Shown: positions 6,196-54,578 of the stretch, in pieces | Numbering within the stretch: position 1 is the first letter of the stretch | Layout of the letters: each line of letters starts with the position of its first letter | Assembly (NCBI GenBank): GCA_964374065.1 | Contig: CAYJWW010000002.1 | Coordinates: 4,153 to 68,152 of the forward strand | Origin: an uncultured Candidatus Saccharibacteria bacterium | GTDB lineage: Bacteria; Patescibacteriota; Minisyncoccia; UBA6257; 2-01-FULL-56-20 | DNA: 64,000 nucleotides | Direction of reading: 5' to 3' | The notes under the pieces: model-generated | The model's input: only the letters and a program-made list of their open reading frames with translations | What the model was told of the DNA's origin: nothing | Databases searched by the model: none | Made by a program: the position numbers and the translations under genes

Positions 6196-6216
6196 ACAGT
6201 AAGTTTAGCACATGAG

Positions 6217-6289
6217 TGCCAGGGGTGGGATTCGAACCCACAAGCCGTCGCCTTATGAAAGCGCTGCTCCACCATTGAGCTACCCTGGC
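6217..6289 (-). tRNA. tRNA-Met or Ile2 (anticodon CAU); CCA not encoded
   Basis: Hand-folded cloverleaf: acceptor GCCAGGG/CCCTGGC, D-stem GCTC/GAGC, anticodon loop TTCATAA, T-arm GTGGG-TTCGAAT-CCCAC. One G.A mismatch at positions 27:43. Confidence 0.8.
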
Positions 6290-6357: not shown

Positions 6358-6666
6358 TACCCTTGCTGCGATACAGCTGATACGCGGGAGGGTGTGGGAA
6401 TGGTTTTCCTGGGAGCCCCATAAGCTCCTGAAGCCGGTTCGATTCCGGCCCCCGCAAAATGTTTCAGCTTTTGTTTTCTGAGAACCGCTGTCGAATCGCT
6501 TCCGGTAAGCGATTCGCAGCTGCATCCCGGAGCGAAAATCCGCCTATGACGGAACCGAGCTTTTTGCTCCTCCGATAGCTTCTCGGAAAATAAAAGCTTC
6601 CGCGAATGGTGATCCCTTAGATTTGTGCTACACTGCGGCCAGTCTCCTTGACTACTCCTACACAAT

Positions 6667-35039: not shown

Positions 35040-35400
35040 CTGGCCCTCCTTTTTGCTGCTGTTGGTTCGACGGGTTGCCCCGGATCCAGCAGCTCAAAAC
35101 CCAGAACAACTTAGTAAACTCAGGTTAATGTAAGTACACTAAGCTGTTCTGGATTATTTACGATTCTTTTGAAACTGTAGCATATCGTGTTTATCTTGTC
35201 AAGGGTCCGGGGTAGCGTGCGCACAGATATGATGATTTTTCACACAATAGAAGAAATAAGTATATAGCCGAATTGCCCTCGTAAAAGGCATTTAATTCAT
35301 CCTTGTGGCCGAAGATGGGAATCGATTTTCTTTAGAAAATCCCGAGGAACCAGACTTCCTTACGAAATCGCCGGCACAAGGCCGGCGATTTCATTATGTG

Positions 35401-50872: not shown

Positions 50873-51274
50873 ATGAAAGCGGTTCCTCCGGCAAACCCGT
50901 CCGACCCTCGCGGTCTGCGCACATGGGAATGGCATGTGGAGACAGGTAAGCAAATCACCGTTTTTCGCCGCTTTCGCGGGGAAACTTTCGGAAACCATTT
51001 TCACAAGGGAGGAGACCCGTCCAAAAATCCAGAGCGGATCCTTTTGGTCTCCGGCACCATGGAAGTTGAATTACTTGACCGAAACGGCGCGTATAAAAAA
51101 GAGGATCTCCGCACCGAGAAAGGACCGGTGGAGTTTTCTATAGAACCCTGGGTGTTGCACCGCTACCGGGCCGCTGCCGATTGCCTATATATCGAATACC
51201 GCATTACCCGGTTCGATCCGCAGGCGCCGGACACGTACCCGCCTGAGGAATTCGGGAGGAACTTCCACGACTGA
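50873..51274 (+). CDS. small cupin-fold protein (WxcM/FdtA-like sugar isomerase domain?), hypothetical
   Basis: 133 aa, beta-rich with conserved His. Assignment rests on context within the glycan locus. Confidence 0.35.
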   Translation: MKAVPPANPSDPRGLRTWEWHVETGKQITVFRRFRGETFGNHFHKGGDPSKNPERILLVSGTMEVELLDRNGAYKKEDLRTEKGPVEFSIEPWVLHRYRAAADCLYIEYRITRFDPQAPDTYPPEEFGRNFHD

Positions 51275-51361
51275 AACCCGCGCCGGTTGACGTCCTGTAT
51301 TGATATCTTATAGTAAAAACTGAGAATAGGGCGGGGTATCGCCTTTTCCGTTACCTAAGAC

Positions 51362-51667
51362 ATGACCGATTACAGAAAAATCGCGACCGACGCGCGCCGG
51401 AAGGTGATCGAGATGATCTACCGGGCGCAATCAAGCCATGTAGGATCAAATCTATCGGCAATAGACATCCTTACCGTTTTATTCGAAAAAATGGACGTGA
51501 AGAAGGATAAGTTCATCGCAAGCAAGGGGTGGGTGGCCGCTTCTCTTTATTATTTTTTATGGAGAAGGGGAAGTATTACAGAAGAGGAATTGAATAGCTA
51601 TTGTCAACAAATTGAGTGTCCTGAATGCAATGGGACAGGGATTGCCAATGGAGTAAATAAAAAGTAA
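51362..51667 (+). CDS. transketolase N-terminal subunit, 5' fragment (gene interrupted by an HNH endonuclease insertion)
   Basis: AQSSHVGSNLSAIDILTVLF matches the TPP-binding N-terminal region of transketolase. The ORF ends in a Cys-rich tail ECPECNGTGIANGVNKK and TAA, in frame with the following HNH ORF. Low-GC region. Confidence 0.55.
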   Translation: MTDYRKIATDARRKVIEMIYRAQSSHVGSNLSAIDILTVLFEKMDVKKDKFIASKGWVAASLYYFLWRRGSITEEELNSYCQQIECPECNGTGIANGVNKK

Positions 51668-51676
51668 CATGAATAT

Positions 51677-52252
51677 GTGTATAAGATTTGCAAAACTTGT
51701 AAAAGAAAGTTCATTCCAAAAGACGATAGACCAACAAGGCCAGCTAAATTTTGTTCCCGAAAATGTATTCGTAACAAAACGCAATTTAAAAAGGGGCATA
51801 CAATTCGTCTTGGATTAAGACCACCGAAATATGCTTGGGACAACGACAATTCTAAAAAGACGAGATTTAAAAAGGGGCATACTTTCGGTTTTAGAAAAGG
51901 TCATGTCTCTTGGAATAAAAATAAAGATTTTGGAAGCATCGAACATCTTGCGAAACGAATTTCATGGTTAACCCTTTACCGAAAATGGAGGTTGGCAGTT
52001 AAACGAAGAGATGGCTTTAAATGCATTCAATGTAACAGCAGAAAAAAATTAAACGTTGACCATTATCCGACTTCATTGGCTCAGCTCGTAAAAGAGTACA
52101 AAATAGAATCACCGCAAGAAAGTAAGAAAATTAAGAAATTCTGGGACACTAAAAATGGGCGAACGCTTTGTATATCATGTCATAAACAAACACTAAATTA
52201 TGGAAGAAACTTCGTGCAAAAAATGCAACGGGACCGGCAGGATTTGGAGTAA
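51677..52252 (+). CDS. HNH homing endonuclease
   Basis: HNH motif (LNVDHYP ... NGRTLCISCH) with CxxC zinc knuckles. GC is about 30%. GTG start in the same frame as the upstream transketolase fragment. Confidence 0.7.
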   Translation: MYKICKTCKRKFIPKDDRPTRPAKFCSRKCIRNKTQFKKGHTIRLGLRPPKYAWDNDNSKKTRFKKGHTFGFRKGHVSWNKNKDFGSIEHLAKRISWLTLYRKWRLAVKRRDGFKCIQCNSRKKLNVDHYPTSLAQLVKEYKIESPQESKKIKKFWDTKNGRTLCISCHKQTLNYGRNFVQKMQRDRQDLE

Positions 52253-52763
52253 GTTTATTGGACTTACGGAACCCGTGCATCCTGATATAATTTTTGCCGG
52301 TGGGTCGATGGGACTTTCGTTTCCCGCCGGAGTCGGCTTCGCTTTAGCGAAGAAACTTAAAGGCGAGGAGGGGAAAATTCACATTTTGATGAGCGACGGA
52401 GAAATGCAAATCGGCACTACCTGGGAGTCGGTTTTAATCGCGAGACAACATTCTCTTTCCAATTTAGCGGTTTGGGTAGACAATAACCGTTTGCAAGCCA
52501 TGGGGCTGACCAAGGAAATACTTAACATTGAGCCGATAGACGAGCGGGTCAAATCGTTCGGCTGGTCAGTCCAGAGGATAGACGGTCATAATTTTGAAGA
52601 AATTGAATCGGCTTTGGGAAAACTCTCCGATTCATCGCCGAACATGATTATCTGCGACACCATAAAAGGCAAGGGAATTTCTTTCATGGAAAACGATAAC
52701 CTCTACCACTATAAAATGTTGTCGGAAGAAGAATATAATAACGCACTGGCAGAGTTAAAATAA
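52200..52763 (+). CDS. transketolase N-terminal subunit, 3' fragment
   Basis: GGSMGLSFPAGVGFALA ... MSDGEMQIGTTWE ... QRIDGHN are TPP-binding motifs. The ORF begins with MEETSCKKCNGTGR, which duplicates the CxxCNGTG motif at the end of the 5' fragment. Confidence 0.55.
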   Translation: MEETSCKKCNGTGRIWSKFIGLTEPVHPDIIFAGGSMGLSFPAGVGFALAKKLKGEEGKIHILMSDGEMQIGTTWESVLIARQHSLSNLAVWVDNNRLQAMGLTKEILNIEPIDERVKSFGWSVQRIDGHNFEEIESALGKLSDSSPNMIICDTIKGKGISFMENDNLYHYKMLSEEEYNNALAELK

Positions 52764-52767
52764 CAAA

Positions 52768-53265
52768 ATGGGAGAAATCATTAAAAATGAGGACGGCAGA
52801 CGCGTATTCGTCAATACTCTAAACGAGCTAGCGGAAACTGACCCAAATATTATTGTCATTATTCCTGATGTTGGATTTAATTACTTAGACGACCCAAAAA
52901 ACAAATTTAGAGTGATAAATTTAGGCGTTACCGAAGCCAGCGCTACGGTAATTGCTGCCGCTTTGGCATTAAGTAACTTTTCCGTTTGGATTTATACCAT
53001 GATTCCGTTTGTTCTCTTTCGCCCTTATGAAATGGTTAGGAATGCCATTGTCAAGCACAATGCCAATGTGAAATTGATTGGGGTCAAGGGCAGTGAGAAA
53101 TACAGATTCCTCGGTTTTTCTCACAACTTACTTCACGAAGAAGAAGACATAAATGTTTGTAAAAATATTGGCCTAAAGTACTGCAACCCGCAGTCGCTAG
53201 ATGAAGTAAGAAGCATCATAATTGCAGCGTACAACGAAAAAAGGGCTGTTTATATCCGACTCTAA
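52768..53265 (+). CDS. transketolase C-terminal (pyrimidine-binding) subunit, short form
   Basis: 165 aa with Transket_pyr-like motifs (INLGVTEASATVIAAALA). The usual C-terminal domain is absent. Confidence 0.5.
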   Translation: MGEIIKNEDGRRVFVNTLNELAETDPNIIVIIPDVGFNYLDDPKNKFRVINLGVTEASATVIAAALALSNFSVWIYTMIPFVLFRPYEMVRNAIVKHNANVKLIGVKGSEKYRFLGFSHNLLHEEEDINVCKNIGLKYCNPQSLDEVRSIIIAAYNEKRAVYIRL

Positions 53266-53291
53266 ATCCAGCGGAATAAAAGCCCGCCTTA

Positions 53292-54578
53292 TTGAACGCT
53301 GGGGTCTATATTGTTCGCGACTACTCCATGGAATCCCGCTCCGCCATCGCCGCCGCCGGAAAAAAGTTCCGGACGAAGAACGTCTCGCGGCAGGTCCGGA
53401 AGATCGTCATCTCCCCGATCAAGGAGATGTCGATCTTGGCCGATTTATGGGAGGAGGAGAGCGGCAATCGGGTCGTTTCATTCGGGCAAGGAATCCCCTA
53501 CTGGGACACGCCTCAGAACATCAAGTCCGCGATACGGCGCGCGCTTCGAGAGCTCGATACCGCGAAGTACACACTTGAACCGGGCATCACGGAGCTTCGC
53601 AGGCTTCTCGCCCGCCACATTGAGAGTTCCCGTGGCGTTCGAAGCGTAGAGGCGAAAAAGGAAATAATGGTCACGGTCGGCTGCCAGGAAGCGGTCGATT
53701 GCGCGCTCCGGAGCGTCGTCGACCACGGCGACGAAGTGCTCCTGCCGGAACCCGCATTCGCTTCGCATATCGAGCAGATCCTCCAGTTCGGCGGAGTACC
53801 GCGCTTCGTGCCGCTCAAAGAAAAAGACGGGTGGCGCCTTGATGCCGCCGCGTGCGAGAAGGCCGTAACGAAGAAAACGAAAGCGGTGCTCTTTAGCACC
53901 CCATCGAACCCCACGGGAGCAGTTTTCGAAAAACGCGACCTGGTTGCGCTCGCGAAGCTCGCCAGACGAAAGAATCTCATAATCATCACCGACGAAACGT
54001 ACGACTTCCTTACGTACGACGGCGCGAAACACTTCTCTCCCGCACGCATTCCGGAGATCCGCGACCGCGTGATCCTTTGCGGGAGCTTTTCCAAAAAATA
54101 TGCCCTGACGGGCTATCGAGTTGGTTTCGCGTTCGCCGACGAAGGGCTCATCGACCACATGCTCAAAGTCCATGACGCCCTGGCGATCTGCGCGCCGGCG
54201 ATCTCGCAGAAAGCCGCGATCGAGGCGCTTAGGGGTCCGCAGGGTTCGGTAACGCAAGCCGTTTCGCGTCTTCGCCGCAACCGGGCGCTTATGTGCCGGG
54301 AGCTCGACAAACTCGCAGAATTCTTCGAGTACCAAAAACCGCGCGGCGCGTATTATATTCTCGCGAAAGTGAAACGGCGCGGCGTTAATTCTTTCACGCT
54401 CGCGGTGCGAATTCTTCGTGAAGCGAACGTGGTGGTGATCCCCGGCGCCGCGTTCGGTCCTTCCGGCGAAGGACACATCAGATTTTCGTTCGCGGGAGAT
54501 CCGAAACGCATCCCGATTGGATTTAAGCGGCTCACCCAGTGGCTCCGGAATTGGAAAGCAGAAGGATATAAATTGTAA
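53292..54578 (+). CDS. class I/II PLP-dependent aminotransferase
   Basis: SFSKKYALTGYRVGF lysine motif, 428 aa. The real start may be the internal MESRSA. Confidence 0.75.
   Translation: MNAGVYIVRDYSMESRSAIAAAGKKFRTKNVSRQVRKIVISPIKEMSILADLWEEESGNRVVSFGQGIPYWDTPQNIKSAIRRALRELDTAKYTLEPGITELRRLLARHIESSRGVRSVEAKKEIMVTVGCQEAVDCALRSVVDHGDEVLLPEPAFASHIEQILQFGGVPRFVPLKEKDGWRLDAAACEKAVTKKTKAVLFSTPSNPTGAVFEKRDLVALAKLARRKNLIIITDETYDFLTYDGAKHFSPARIPEIRDRVILCGSFSKKYALTGYRVGFAFADEGLIDHMLKVHDALAICAPAISQKAAIEALRGPQGSVTQAVSRLRRNRALMCRELDKLAEFFEYQKPRGAYYILAKVKRRGVNSFTLAVRILREANVVVIPGAAFGPSGEGHIRFSFAGDPKRIPIGFKRLTQWLRNWKAEGYKL

Follow-up and report, generated by a model that had tools for sequence, protein, structure and literature searches.

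Based on analysis of open reading frames (ORFs) and profile searches we found that tktN, the gene for a transketolase N-subunit, is interrupted by a 637-nt HNH cassette at positions 51611-52247 of the window, by which we mean the whole 64,000-nt stretch of DNA that was analysed. The cassette carries, in this order, an N-tail with a TAA stop, a 9-nt spacer, a 191-aa HNH ORF and a C-tail that overlaps this ORF. The features of the region, all on the forward strand, are the following:

51362-51667, + strand: tktN 5' fragment ORF, 101 aa, ending in IECPECNGTGIANGVNKK before the stop
51362..51610, + strand: host part of the 5' fragment, aa 1-83, ending in EELNSYCQQ and matching positions 5-90 of the Pfam Transketolase_N profile
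51611..51667, + strand: N-tail from the cassette, IECPECNGTGIANGVNKK plus TAA, with a CPxCxGxG knuckle at 51617-51640
51668..51676, + strand: spacer CATGAATAT, 9 nt, from the stop of the 5' fragment to the GTG start of the HNH ORF
51677..52252, + strand: HNH ORF, 191 aa, GTG start, in frame with the 5' fragment with one TAA and 9 nt between them
52200..52247, + strand: C-tail from the cassette, MEETSCKKCNGTGRIW, with a CxxCxGxG knuckle at 52215-52238
52200-52763, + strand: tktN 3' fragment ORF, 187 aa, starting with MEETSCKKCNGTGRIW, in another frame and overlapping the HNH ORF by 53 nt
52248..52763, + strand: host part of the 3' fragment, SKFIGLTEP to the end, matching positions 146-270 of the Transketolase_N profile
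52768..53265, + strand: partner subunit gene tktC, 165 aa, with a Transket_pyr domain only (Pfam PF02779, 2.9e-13)

The three ORFs, their frames, the single TAA and the 53-nt overlap had been described in a previous sequence-only reading and were reproduced here. The C-tail is read in the +1 frame of the HNH 3' end and starts from an ATG (52200-52202) within the HNH codons Y175-G176; the sequence of the C-tail is partly constrained by the overlapping HNH frame. The N-tail, with the peptide stretch CNGTGIANGVNKK, has the motif CPECNGTG, and the C-tail peptide starts with MEETSCKK. The cofactor motifs are intact, with the thiamine-diphosphate motif SDGE...VDNN present in the 3' fragment, and tktN is followed by the Transket_pyr partner gene in all related loci. 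The tktN product is best explained as the subunit that binds ThDP in a small transketolase-like enzyme, encoded within a nucleotide-sugar/glycan cluster. Judged by its nearest homologs, the host is probably a CPR/Parcubacteria bacterium.

Comparison with HNH-free homologs, as had been proposed earlier, located the inserted segment. When aligned with intact homologs, the 5' fragment matches up to residue 82-85 and the 3' fragment from residue 17-18 onwards, and even with intact tktN alleles that reach 88-94% identity to split ones, the alignments break off precisely at the tails. These limits of the cassette were set at the protein level, because the DNA identity to the nearest intact locus is only about 70-75%. 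In an independent Logan assembly (L109), which is 99.97% identical over 3564 nt, these three ORFs are present as well, and errors of assembly or sequencing can therefore be dismissed as the source of the split. The low GC content reported for the block was also seen (HNH 0.35, tktN host parts 0.30-0.50, tktC 0.39), but the flanks are at about 56-58% and not at 63% as claimed; the flanking genes have 0.55-0.58 and the whole window 0.566. As the tkt genes of the nearest intact locus (L108) are similarly low in GC without the insertion, the endonuclease gene alone is not the cause of this composition.

The middle ORF matched PHROG HNH families at 1e-8, and no Pfam family was found for it at E<=0.01. 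It has kept an N-terminal CxxC...CxxxC, the zinc-finger pairs C116/C119 and C165/C168, and D128-H129...N160...H169. These residues are invariant among 18 close homologs (49-92% identity), and in the comparison of 17 family members C116/C119, D128-H129, N160, C165/C168 and H169 did not vary. The same HNH family occurs in the tkt operon of many Parcubacteria-type contigs; a tblastn search with the HNH protein against annotated phages gave no match. Some copies are intergenic, being located upstream of an intact tktN (L003, L009) or between tktN and tktC (L094-99), and no CxxCxGxG motif was found at any of them. The copies inside tktN sit at three positions within about 15 codons:

Site A copies: window, L004, L006-8, L088-93, L100
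Site B copies: L001/2/5, L101, P0198
Site C copies: P0189, P0154

At least 12 diverged loci share the split architecture, and short and long subtypes of the cassette each occur at both site A and site B. A spacer of 7-9 nt with similar sequence is present in L001, L088 and L089 as well. Among close homologs the presence of the HNH gene at a defined tktN site is polymorphic. The relative frames of the three ORFs vary from locus to locus, and we rejected stop-codon read-through into a fusion of the N fragment with HNH, as the in-frame layout of the window is not conserved in other loci. Among the loci sampled the cassette was found only in tktN, and no CxxCxGxG motif was found near HNH genes in other host genes in a limited sample of 79 viral loci and distant metagenome relatives (L102-107).

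Both tails are missing from intact tktN homologs, while a CxxC knuckle is present at every visible junction of the intragenic copies. The CxxCxGxG motif was detected in 10 N-tails and 12 C-tails from the loci, in 16 N-fragment clusters and in about 15 C-fragment clusters, and the sole variant is the N-tail of L090 (CDECRGTS), which ends in GTS instead of GxG. The codons for the Cys and Gly residues of the tails vary synonymously and the residues themselves are fixed; at the DNA level the two motif copies share a modest identity, which varies among loci. Within the 64 kb of the window the repeated core TGCAAYGGGACMGG is confined to the two junctions (0.00 expected by chance). The repeat noticed in the sequence-only reading is real, with a length of 14 nt, or of 16 nt at 14/16 identity including flank, and not 17 nt. 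Its interpretation as a target-site duplication or as the ends of an element did not hold, since the two copies encode a protein-level motif and differ at third positions, and other loci freely use other codons. Six-frame translation of the window gave three copies of the CxxCxGxG peptide, where about 0.8 is expected by chance per 64 kb, yet it is present at both junctions; the third copy, at 35188, lies inside no ORF of at least 80 aa.

The start codon of the C-tail overlaps the HNH gene as TAT-GG at all intragenic loci whose C-side junction is visible, and the upstream free-standing copies L003 and L009 share this overlap. Free-standing HNH relatives end right after TYG(K/R) without the NFVQKM extension, which indicates that the conserved extension reflects the tail frame and not the HNH. 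The residues that follow the motif track the HNH subtype and not the insertion site, so that the tails and the HNH gene appear, from these sequence comparisons, to travel as one unit.

All three ORFs are under purifying selection. Among split loci dN/dS was 0.08 in the N fragment and 0.06-0.24 in the C fragment, with 0.12-0.18 in HNH, and in the same locus pairs the dS of HNH is lower than that of the host gene. The earlier proposal that insertion of an HNH homing endonuclease gave a split subunit is supported, and this subunit is still maintained. The homing event had been called recent, which does not fit the split architecture as such, since diverged lineages conserve it under purifying selection; the allele in the window, however, has a mosaic structure that was detected by sliding-window identity:

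~51530..52300, + strand: donor-type (co-conversion-like) tract of about 25 host codons upstream and 15-20 downstream, plus the cassette

Outside this tract the protein is closer to intact alleles of the Colwell/Jorgensenbacteria type (0.7-0.9), whereas within the tract its identity to the split lineage (0.66-0.72) exceeds that to intact alleles (0.33-0.54). The tktN gene of the window therefore reads as a mosaic around the insertion, a pattern that fits co-conversion during homing. The lower dS of HNH points the same way, and both observations count as indirect evidence for co-conversion.

When the two fragments were artificially fused, AlphaFold2 (AF2) modelled this single chain, which is not the heterodimer, with a pLDDT of 87-89 and a pTM of 0.86. 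The best Foldseek match of the fused model was the split-gene transketolase 6YAK chain A (TM 0.82, E=1.9e-23), and the joined fragments are thus predicted to give a complete PP-domain fold. In the model the bases of the tails pair as strands 83-85/115-117, and a bridge is formed between residues 94 and 106 beside the knuckles. Confidence in the tails themselves was low to moderate (pLDDT 50-78), and unpaired alignment rows raised it only to about 70. The joined tails resembled several zinc-centre families: PF00684 (DnaJ_CXXCXGXG; 2e-5, 21-25 bits, cutoff 32.7), PF15777 (Anti-TRAP; 1.2e-7, with the L004 pair at 32.1 bits against a cutoff of 32), PF20833 (the RNase E/G Zn-link segment; 24 bits, cutoff 26.8) and the DnaJ Cys-rich domain of PDB 1EXK (E=0.036). 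Most of these scores fall short of the Pfam gathering thresholds, as the tails have two of the four motifs only.

We consider it probable that the free-standing HNH cassette in tktN carries its own zinc-clasp tails, which reassemble the protein that its insertion has broken, the clasp being suggested by the motif and its conservation. In such a mechanism the endonuclease would cut intact tktN alleles in the loop around codons 84-101, and repair would copy the cassette with short flanks into the cut allele. The three ORFs would be translated in a coupled fashion and both fragments would refold into one PP domain. The knuckles, emerging next to each other from the fold, would together coordinate a single Zn(Cys)4 ion and hold the break closed, and the insertion would thereby become nearly harmless without RNA or protein splicing. 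We put forward more tentatively, as an idea somewhat less likely to be right than wrong, that the cassette is a portable split-and-clasp module with both zinc-knuckle halves, a stop and an embedded start, which can land in a coding sequence and leave a working two-piece protein.

The tails could also be by-products of the new stop and start or plain linkers, with the same insertion and a functional split gene in which reassembly occurs via the native fold interface alone. We regard this as unlikely. In its favour, the split NrdA fragments of phage Aeh1 heterodimerise without their tails, AF2 confidence in the tails is low to moderate and the HNH frame partly dictates the C-tail. Against it, both CxxC pairs are kept in all tails seen, at three sites and in two subtypes and despite synonymous codon variation, the free-standing relatives lack the extension that reflects the tail frame, and the N-tail of the window keeps the motif although no ORF overlaps it. 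Zinc knuckles are often nucleic-acid binders, and they might instead serve the mobile element by binding nucleic acid, by recruiting or regulating HNH, or as conserved DNA handles for recombination between cassettes. The apparent swapping of HNH subtypes between already split sites and the lower dS of HNH would agree with such a role, which we nevertheless find improbable: the knuckles are translated on the host fragments and not on HNH, the DNA identity of the motif copies is modest and varies among loci, and intergenic copies of the same HNH family do without knuckles.

Neither decay nor splicing accounts well for the locus. A stop and a frame change do interrupt the gene, and accessory glycan genes can be dispensable, but a decaying pseudogene that was broken by a selfish element and has coincidental tail motifs is very hard to reconcile with dN/dS values of 0.06-0.24 in both fragments among split loci, with intact cofactor motifs and an architecture shared by at least 12 diverged loci, and with a motif expected about 0.8 times per 64 kb that is found at both junctions. 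If the insert were spliced out, whether as an ORF-bearing group I or II intron, an intein or a split intein, a continuous TktN would be restored. The in-frame position of the HNH ORF behind the upstream fragment in the window speaks for it, as does the richness of CPR genomes in introns (PMC13011429, PMC11270868). An Rfam search of 51000-53600 gave only noise and no intron family even at E<=10, and the three ORFs are packed end to end with only the 9-nt spacer outside them, which leaves no room for a ribozyme. The Pfam search detected neither a Hint/intein domain nor split-intein halves, and the tails of 16-18 aa (34 aa in total) are too short for such halves. With a stop and a frame change in the window and different frame relations in other loci, the group I intron and the intein-like insertion suggested earlier were both discarded, and we give splicing in any form next to no credence.

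The closest precedent is nrdA/mobE of phage Aeh1, described as genes in pieces (Friedrich 2007; Crona et al. 2011, PMC3045599), in which nrdA is split by the free-standing HNH gene mobE and NrdA-a and NrdA-b carry essential element-derived tails. As in tktN, the coding sequence is broken by a free-standing HNH gene with neither an intron nor an intein involved, and the products carry AT-rich, element-derived C- and N-terminal tails that are missing from intact homologs. The Aeh1 tails are not needed for the association of the fragments (PMC3045599), and split fragments may thus associate without a clasp. The authors of that work put tails forward as a general means of neutralising the fragmentation of genes, and expected them to be hard to find because they lack a recognisable sequence (PMC3045599). 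The Aeh1 tails are oppositely charged, with no database match or zinc motif, whereas the tktN tails carry a conserved CxxCxGxG pair. In contrast to the phage system, the tktN host is cellular (CPR-like) and the target transketolase-like, the cassette with its tails is found at three positions and across many lineages, and the downstream start codon sits within a conserved HNH codon pair. The split of topoisomerase 39/60 of phage T4 by mobA is also an HNH-family insertion with tail-like extensions, but it is a phage system without a zinc motif and with translational bypassing in gene 60.

For the putative metal site, RNase E offers a parallel with the same motif: each protomer has one CPxCxGxG and two protomers share a single zinc in the Zn-link (PMC2631609), as two polypeptides would each give two cysteines to one metal site in tktN. 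The RNase E site lies within the chains of a homodimer, whereas that of tktN would join two different chains at their ends and would come from a mobile element. In the DnaJ Cys-rich domain and anti-TRAP, CxxCxGxG pairs likewise form a Zn(Cys)4 centre, but there the motifs belong to a single chain (four per DnaJ domain), whereas in tktN two chains have one motif each. The same order of N fragment, endonuclease ORF and C fragment is seen in the split-intein fractured genes of Dassa et al. (2009, PMC2677866); these have Hint halves, while tktN has none, and with tails of 16-18 aa protein trans-splicing is implausible.

If the portable module is real, mobile elements would have a third means of residing within genes, one that needs no splicing, beside introns and inteins; the module could then occur in other genes and be reused as a small genetically encoded split-protein tag. 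A tag pair of 16-18 residues that re-joins a split enzyme would be of interest to protein engineers. To our knowledge, the NrdA of phage Aeh1 is the only example of element-derived assembly tails for which biochemical work exists. The tktN tails add a recognisable metal-binding motif with dozens of natural variants and three insertion points, and the tail-less intergenic copies of the same HNH family are built-in controls, so that a protein-reassembly device supplied by a mobile element becomes directly testable. CPR bacteria are already known for rRNA and tRNA genes ridden with introns and endonucleases, and the tktN locus would extend the idea of element-derived tails from phages to these cellular genomes.

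Based on the ORF list and the sequence, we found that tktN, the gene for the transketolase N-subunit, is split at 51611-52247 of the window by a 637-nt cassette consisting of an N-tail with its stop codon, a spacer, an HNH ORF and a C-tail. The ORFs concerned, with the partner gene tktC, are the following:

51362-51667, + strand: tktN 5' fragment, 101 aa, Pfam Transketolase_N (profile 5-90)
51677-52252, + strand: HNH ORF, 191 aa, GTG start, several PHROG HNH endonuclease families at 1e-8
52200-52763, + strand: tktN 3' fragment, 187 aa, Pfam Transketolase_N (profile 146-270)
52768-53265, + strand: partner gene, 165 aa, 3' of the tktN fragments, Transket_pyr match

The HNH ORF had no Pfam match. 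The 5' fragment terminates in IECPECNGTGIANGVNKK-TAA and the HNH ORF begins 9 nt on in the identical frame; the 3' fragment opens with MEETSCKKCNGTGRIW in a frame unlike that of the HNH ORF, with a 53-nt overlap between the two. Coordinates, frames, single TAA and overlap agreed with the sequence-only reading. Just 9 nt of the insert are non-ORF, and the tails measure 18 (N-side) and 16 residues (C-side). The split is not a sequencing error, since an independent assembly of the locus (L109) has the same ORFs and is 99.97% identical across 3.5 kb.

A core repeated at both junctions had been claimed as 17 nt long and likened to a target-site duplication. The core, TGCAAYGGGACMGG, does occur at the two junctions and nowhere else in the 64 kb (chance expectation 0.00), but spans 14 nt, and the duplication was not supported, as the two copies are mismatched at third codon positions and the tail Cys/Gly codons vary synonymously between loci (TGT/TGC; GGA/GGC/GGG/GGT), with other tail positions differing. 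Six-frame translation gave a third peptide match to the CxxCxGxG motif, CLSCQGSG at 35188 (+), outside any ORF of at least 80 aa and probably due to chance. The claimed low-GC block held for the HNH ORF (0.35), the tktN parts (0.30-0.50) and the partner gene (0.39), but the flanking genes lie at 0.55-0.58, not about 63%. At L108, the nearest intact locus, tktN has a GC of 0.456 and the partner gene 0.378, so the element alone does not account for low GC in these genes. Elsewhere in the window, two tRNA-Met(CAT) genes in divergent orientation are separated by about 100 nt (6216-6289, -; 6385-6457, +), only the former at Rfam gathering score.

The sequence-only reading had considered an intron, an intein-like insertion and homing that left the subunit split but possibly still functional. 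A group I or II intron is unlikely, because an Rfam search at E<=10 returned no intron family and so little of the insert is non-ORF. An intein was made unlikely by the absence of a Hint/intein domain (Pfam) and by the short extensions; the shared frame of 5' fragment and HNH ORF, which might speak for splicing, is window-specific, related loci using other frame combinations for the three ORFs. Decay to a pseudogene was made unlikely by low dN/dS in all three ORFs, which are kept by selection judging from split-locus pairs (N fragment 0.08; C fragment 0.06-0.24; HNH 0.12-0.18), and by the complete PP domain that the joined fragments form. The latter follows from a confident AlphaFold model of the fused fragments (pLDDT 89, pTM 0.86) and its best PDB match, the split-gene transketolase 6YAK chain A (TM 0.82, E=1.9e-23). 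The partner subunit has Transket_pyr only, without Transketolase_C, as in all related loci (165-187 aa), and this minimal transketolase-like pair is part of a nucleotide-sugar cluster that also includes Bac_transf, a methyltransferase, two aminotransferases and a CapD-like dehydratase.

Homing with retained function was supported by these data and by the mosaic of the window protein. Its host residues 1-63 and from about 105 onward are nearer Colwell/Jorgensenbacteria-type intact alleles (0.7-0.9 identity); the stretches that flank the insertion, about 25 residues on its N-terminal side and 15-20 on its C-terminal side, are nearer the split lineage (0.66-0.72 vs 0.33-0.54), a pattern that would be expected from flank co-conversion. 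In split-locus pairs dS was lower for HNH (0.45-0.85) than for the host fragments (0.7-1.8), values near saturation and qualitative only, which would fit a more recent exchange of the cassette.

Eighteen close homologs share 49-92% identity with the HNH ORF, and the CxxC, DH, N and CxxCH residues are invariant among them. When genomes, viral contigs and metagenomes were scanned and the encoding contigs looked up, all close members (~35-92% identity) lay within or adjoining this tkt operon, in five kinds of position:

(i) 5' of intact tktN: L003, L009
(ii) between intact tktN and partner gene: L094-99
(iii) site A, in tktN after about codon 84-86: window, L004, L006-8, L088-93, L100
(iv) site B, in tktN after about codon 101: L001/2/5, L101, P0198
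(v) site C, in tktN after ...GLVEPH: P0189 N fragment, P0154 C fragment

Here L and P numbers denote related loci and TktN protein clusters. All named genomes with the family are CPR/Parcubacteria MAGs (Staskawiczbacteria, Wildermuthbacteria, 'Parcubacteria group'), and the intact TktN proteins nearest to the window are from Colwellbacteria and Jorgensenbacteria. L009 (IMGVR_UViG_3300027819_000180, 42.7 kb), of IMG/VR viral class with HNH 5' of intact tktN and partner gene, is a CPR fragment wrongly classed as viral or else a phage with this glycan module. In the six metagenome contigs L094-L099 (e.g. L094:2902-4020) HNH runs in frame without a stop into the partner gene (…CHKEITYWQQNTRDTRKIFMDTL…), giving a 372-aa HNH-TktC fusion ORF, with TAT-TGG instead of the usual TAT-GG start overlap. 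The operon appears to be a hotspot for endonucleases of several families. Between the partner gene and the nearest intact relative of the window tktN (P0056, 79% identity), L108 carries a 255-aa NUMOD3-domain ORF (1336-2103, GC 0.36) that probably encodes a further homing endonuclease. In the same glycan clusters, different, additional HNH ORFs lie directly 5' of the tktN 5' fragment (L006:2524-2955) and across the start of a DegT-type aminotransferase gene (L004:6869-7426, PF01844).

Comparison with HNH-free homologs defined the insert, as the sequence-only reading had proposed. Intact alleles (L003, P0162, P0163 and others) read ...SYCQ-PG-SKFIGLAEP..., split alleles have N-tail, HNH gene and C-tail in place of the middle PG, and when split fragments are aligned with intact proteins (up to 88-94% identical), the match breaks off exactly at the tails. 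CxxCxGxG was present at each visible junction of every intragenic HNH copy, the sole variant being the L090 N-tail (CDECRGTS). It was absent near intergenic copies, elsewhere on the HNH-coding strand in close tkt-associated loci (L001-009, L088-107) and near HNH in more distant relatives (79 viral loci). Two HNH sub-clades, a short form (window type) and a long form whose N-terminal module is duplicated, both occur at both site A and site B. The tails seem to move together with the endonuclease gene, because the post-motif N-tail residues track sub-clade (short G-I-A/D...; long G-K-K/R/V...), not site.

In short-form cassettes HNH starts 7-9 nt past the 5' fragment stop (TAA-AATGAATAT-GTG); long-form cassettes (L006, L091-L093, L101) have a well-conserved spacer of about 27 nt there (TAACTTTTGCAAYTGGATTTGCTATAGTTAATAT-GTG), which might serve, for example, in re-initiation or as an RNA structure. 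At all intragenic loci whose C-side junction is visible, the ATG of the downstream ORF is embedded in the invariant HNH Thr-Tyr-Gly (ACN TAT GGN). The same is true of L003 and L009, free-standing copies on the upstream side, in which this ATG starts intact tktN. From this tight packing, the three ORFs may be translated in a coupled fashion. In free-standing relatives the ORF stops shortly past TYG(K/R), and the NFVQKM extension conserved in intragenic copies is an alternate frame of ...SCKKC..., which suggests that the tail, not the HNH C-terminus, is under selection.

The joined tails matched Pfam DnaJ_CXXCXGXG (2e-5), Anti-TRAP (1.2e-7; L004 pair 32.1 bits, cutoff 32), the Zn-link segment of RNase_E_G_Thio and, in the PDB, the DnaJ cysteine-rich domain 1EXK. 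In DnaJ, each zinc centre is built from two CxxCxGxG motifs. In the RNase E Zn-link, two protomers, each with one CPxCxGxG motif, hold a single zinc between them (PMC2631609). The window N-tail CPECNGTG exactly fits this motif. Both fused-fragment AlphaFold models pair the tail bases as short strands (83-85 with 115-117), and the second adds a bridge from 94, just past the first knuckle, to 106, just ahead of the second, at a tail-region confidence of only 50-78. Because of these family matches, motif likenesses and paired bases, we propose that a single Zn(Cys)4 ion, shared by the two knuckles, would hold the fragments together at the site of the split, a function that we regard as reasonably probable.

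The closest precedent is phage Aeh1, in which the HNH gene mobE splits nrdA and the NrdA fragments carry element-derived tails that have opposite charges and no database matches, such tails being expected by the authors to be hard to recognise (PMC3045599). The principle is common to both; however, the tktN tails both have a recognisable, predicted metal-binding motif, the host is cellular and CPR-type, the target gene is another one, and the cassette has an embedded start codon and recurs at three sites in many lineages. Fractured genes with split inteins (PMC2677866) share the gene order, but Hint halves are absent in tktN. Our literature search, in a searchable library only, found no paper on zinc-knuckle tails on endonuclease-split genes, which is absence of evidence. 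We hold the anatomy and mobile-element assignment of the cassette with high confidence. In the tktN case a free-standing homing endonuclease both interrupts a gene and provides its assembly tails, which extends the known principle, and the zinc-clasp mechanism is likely and open to direct test.
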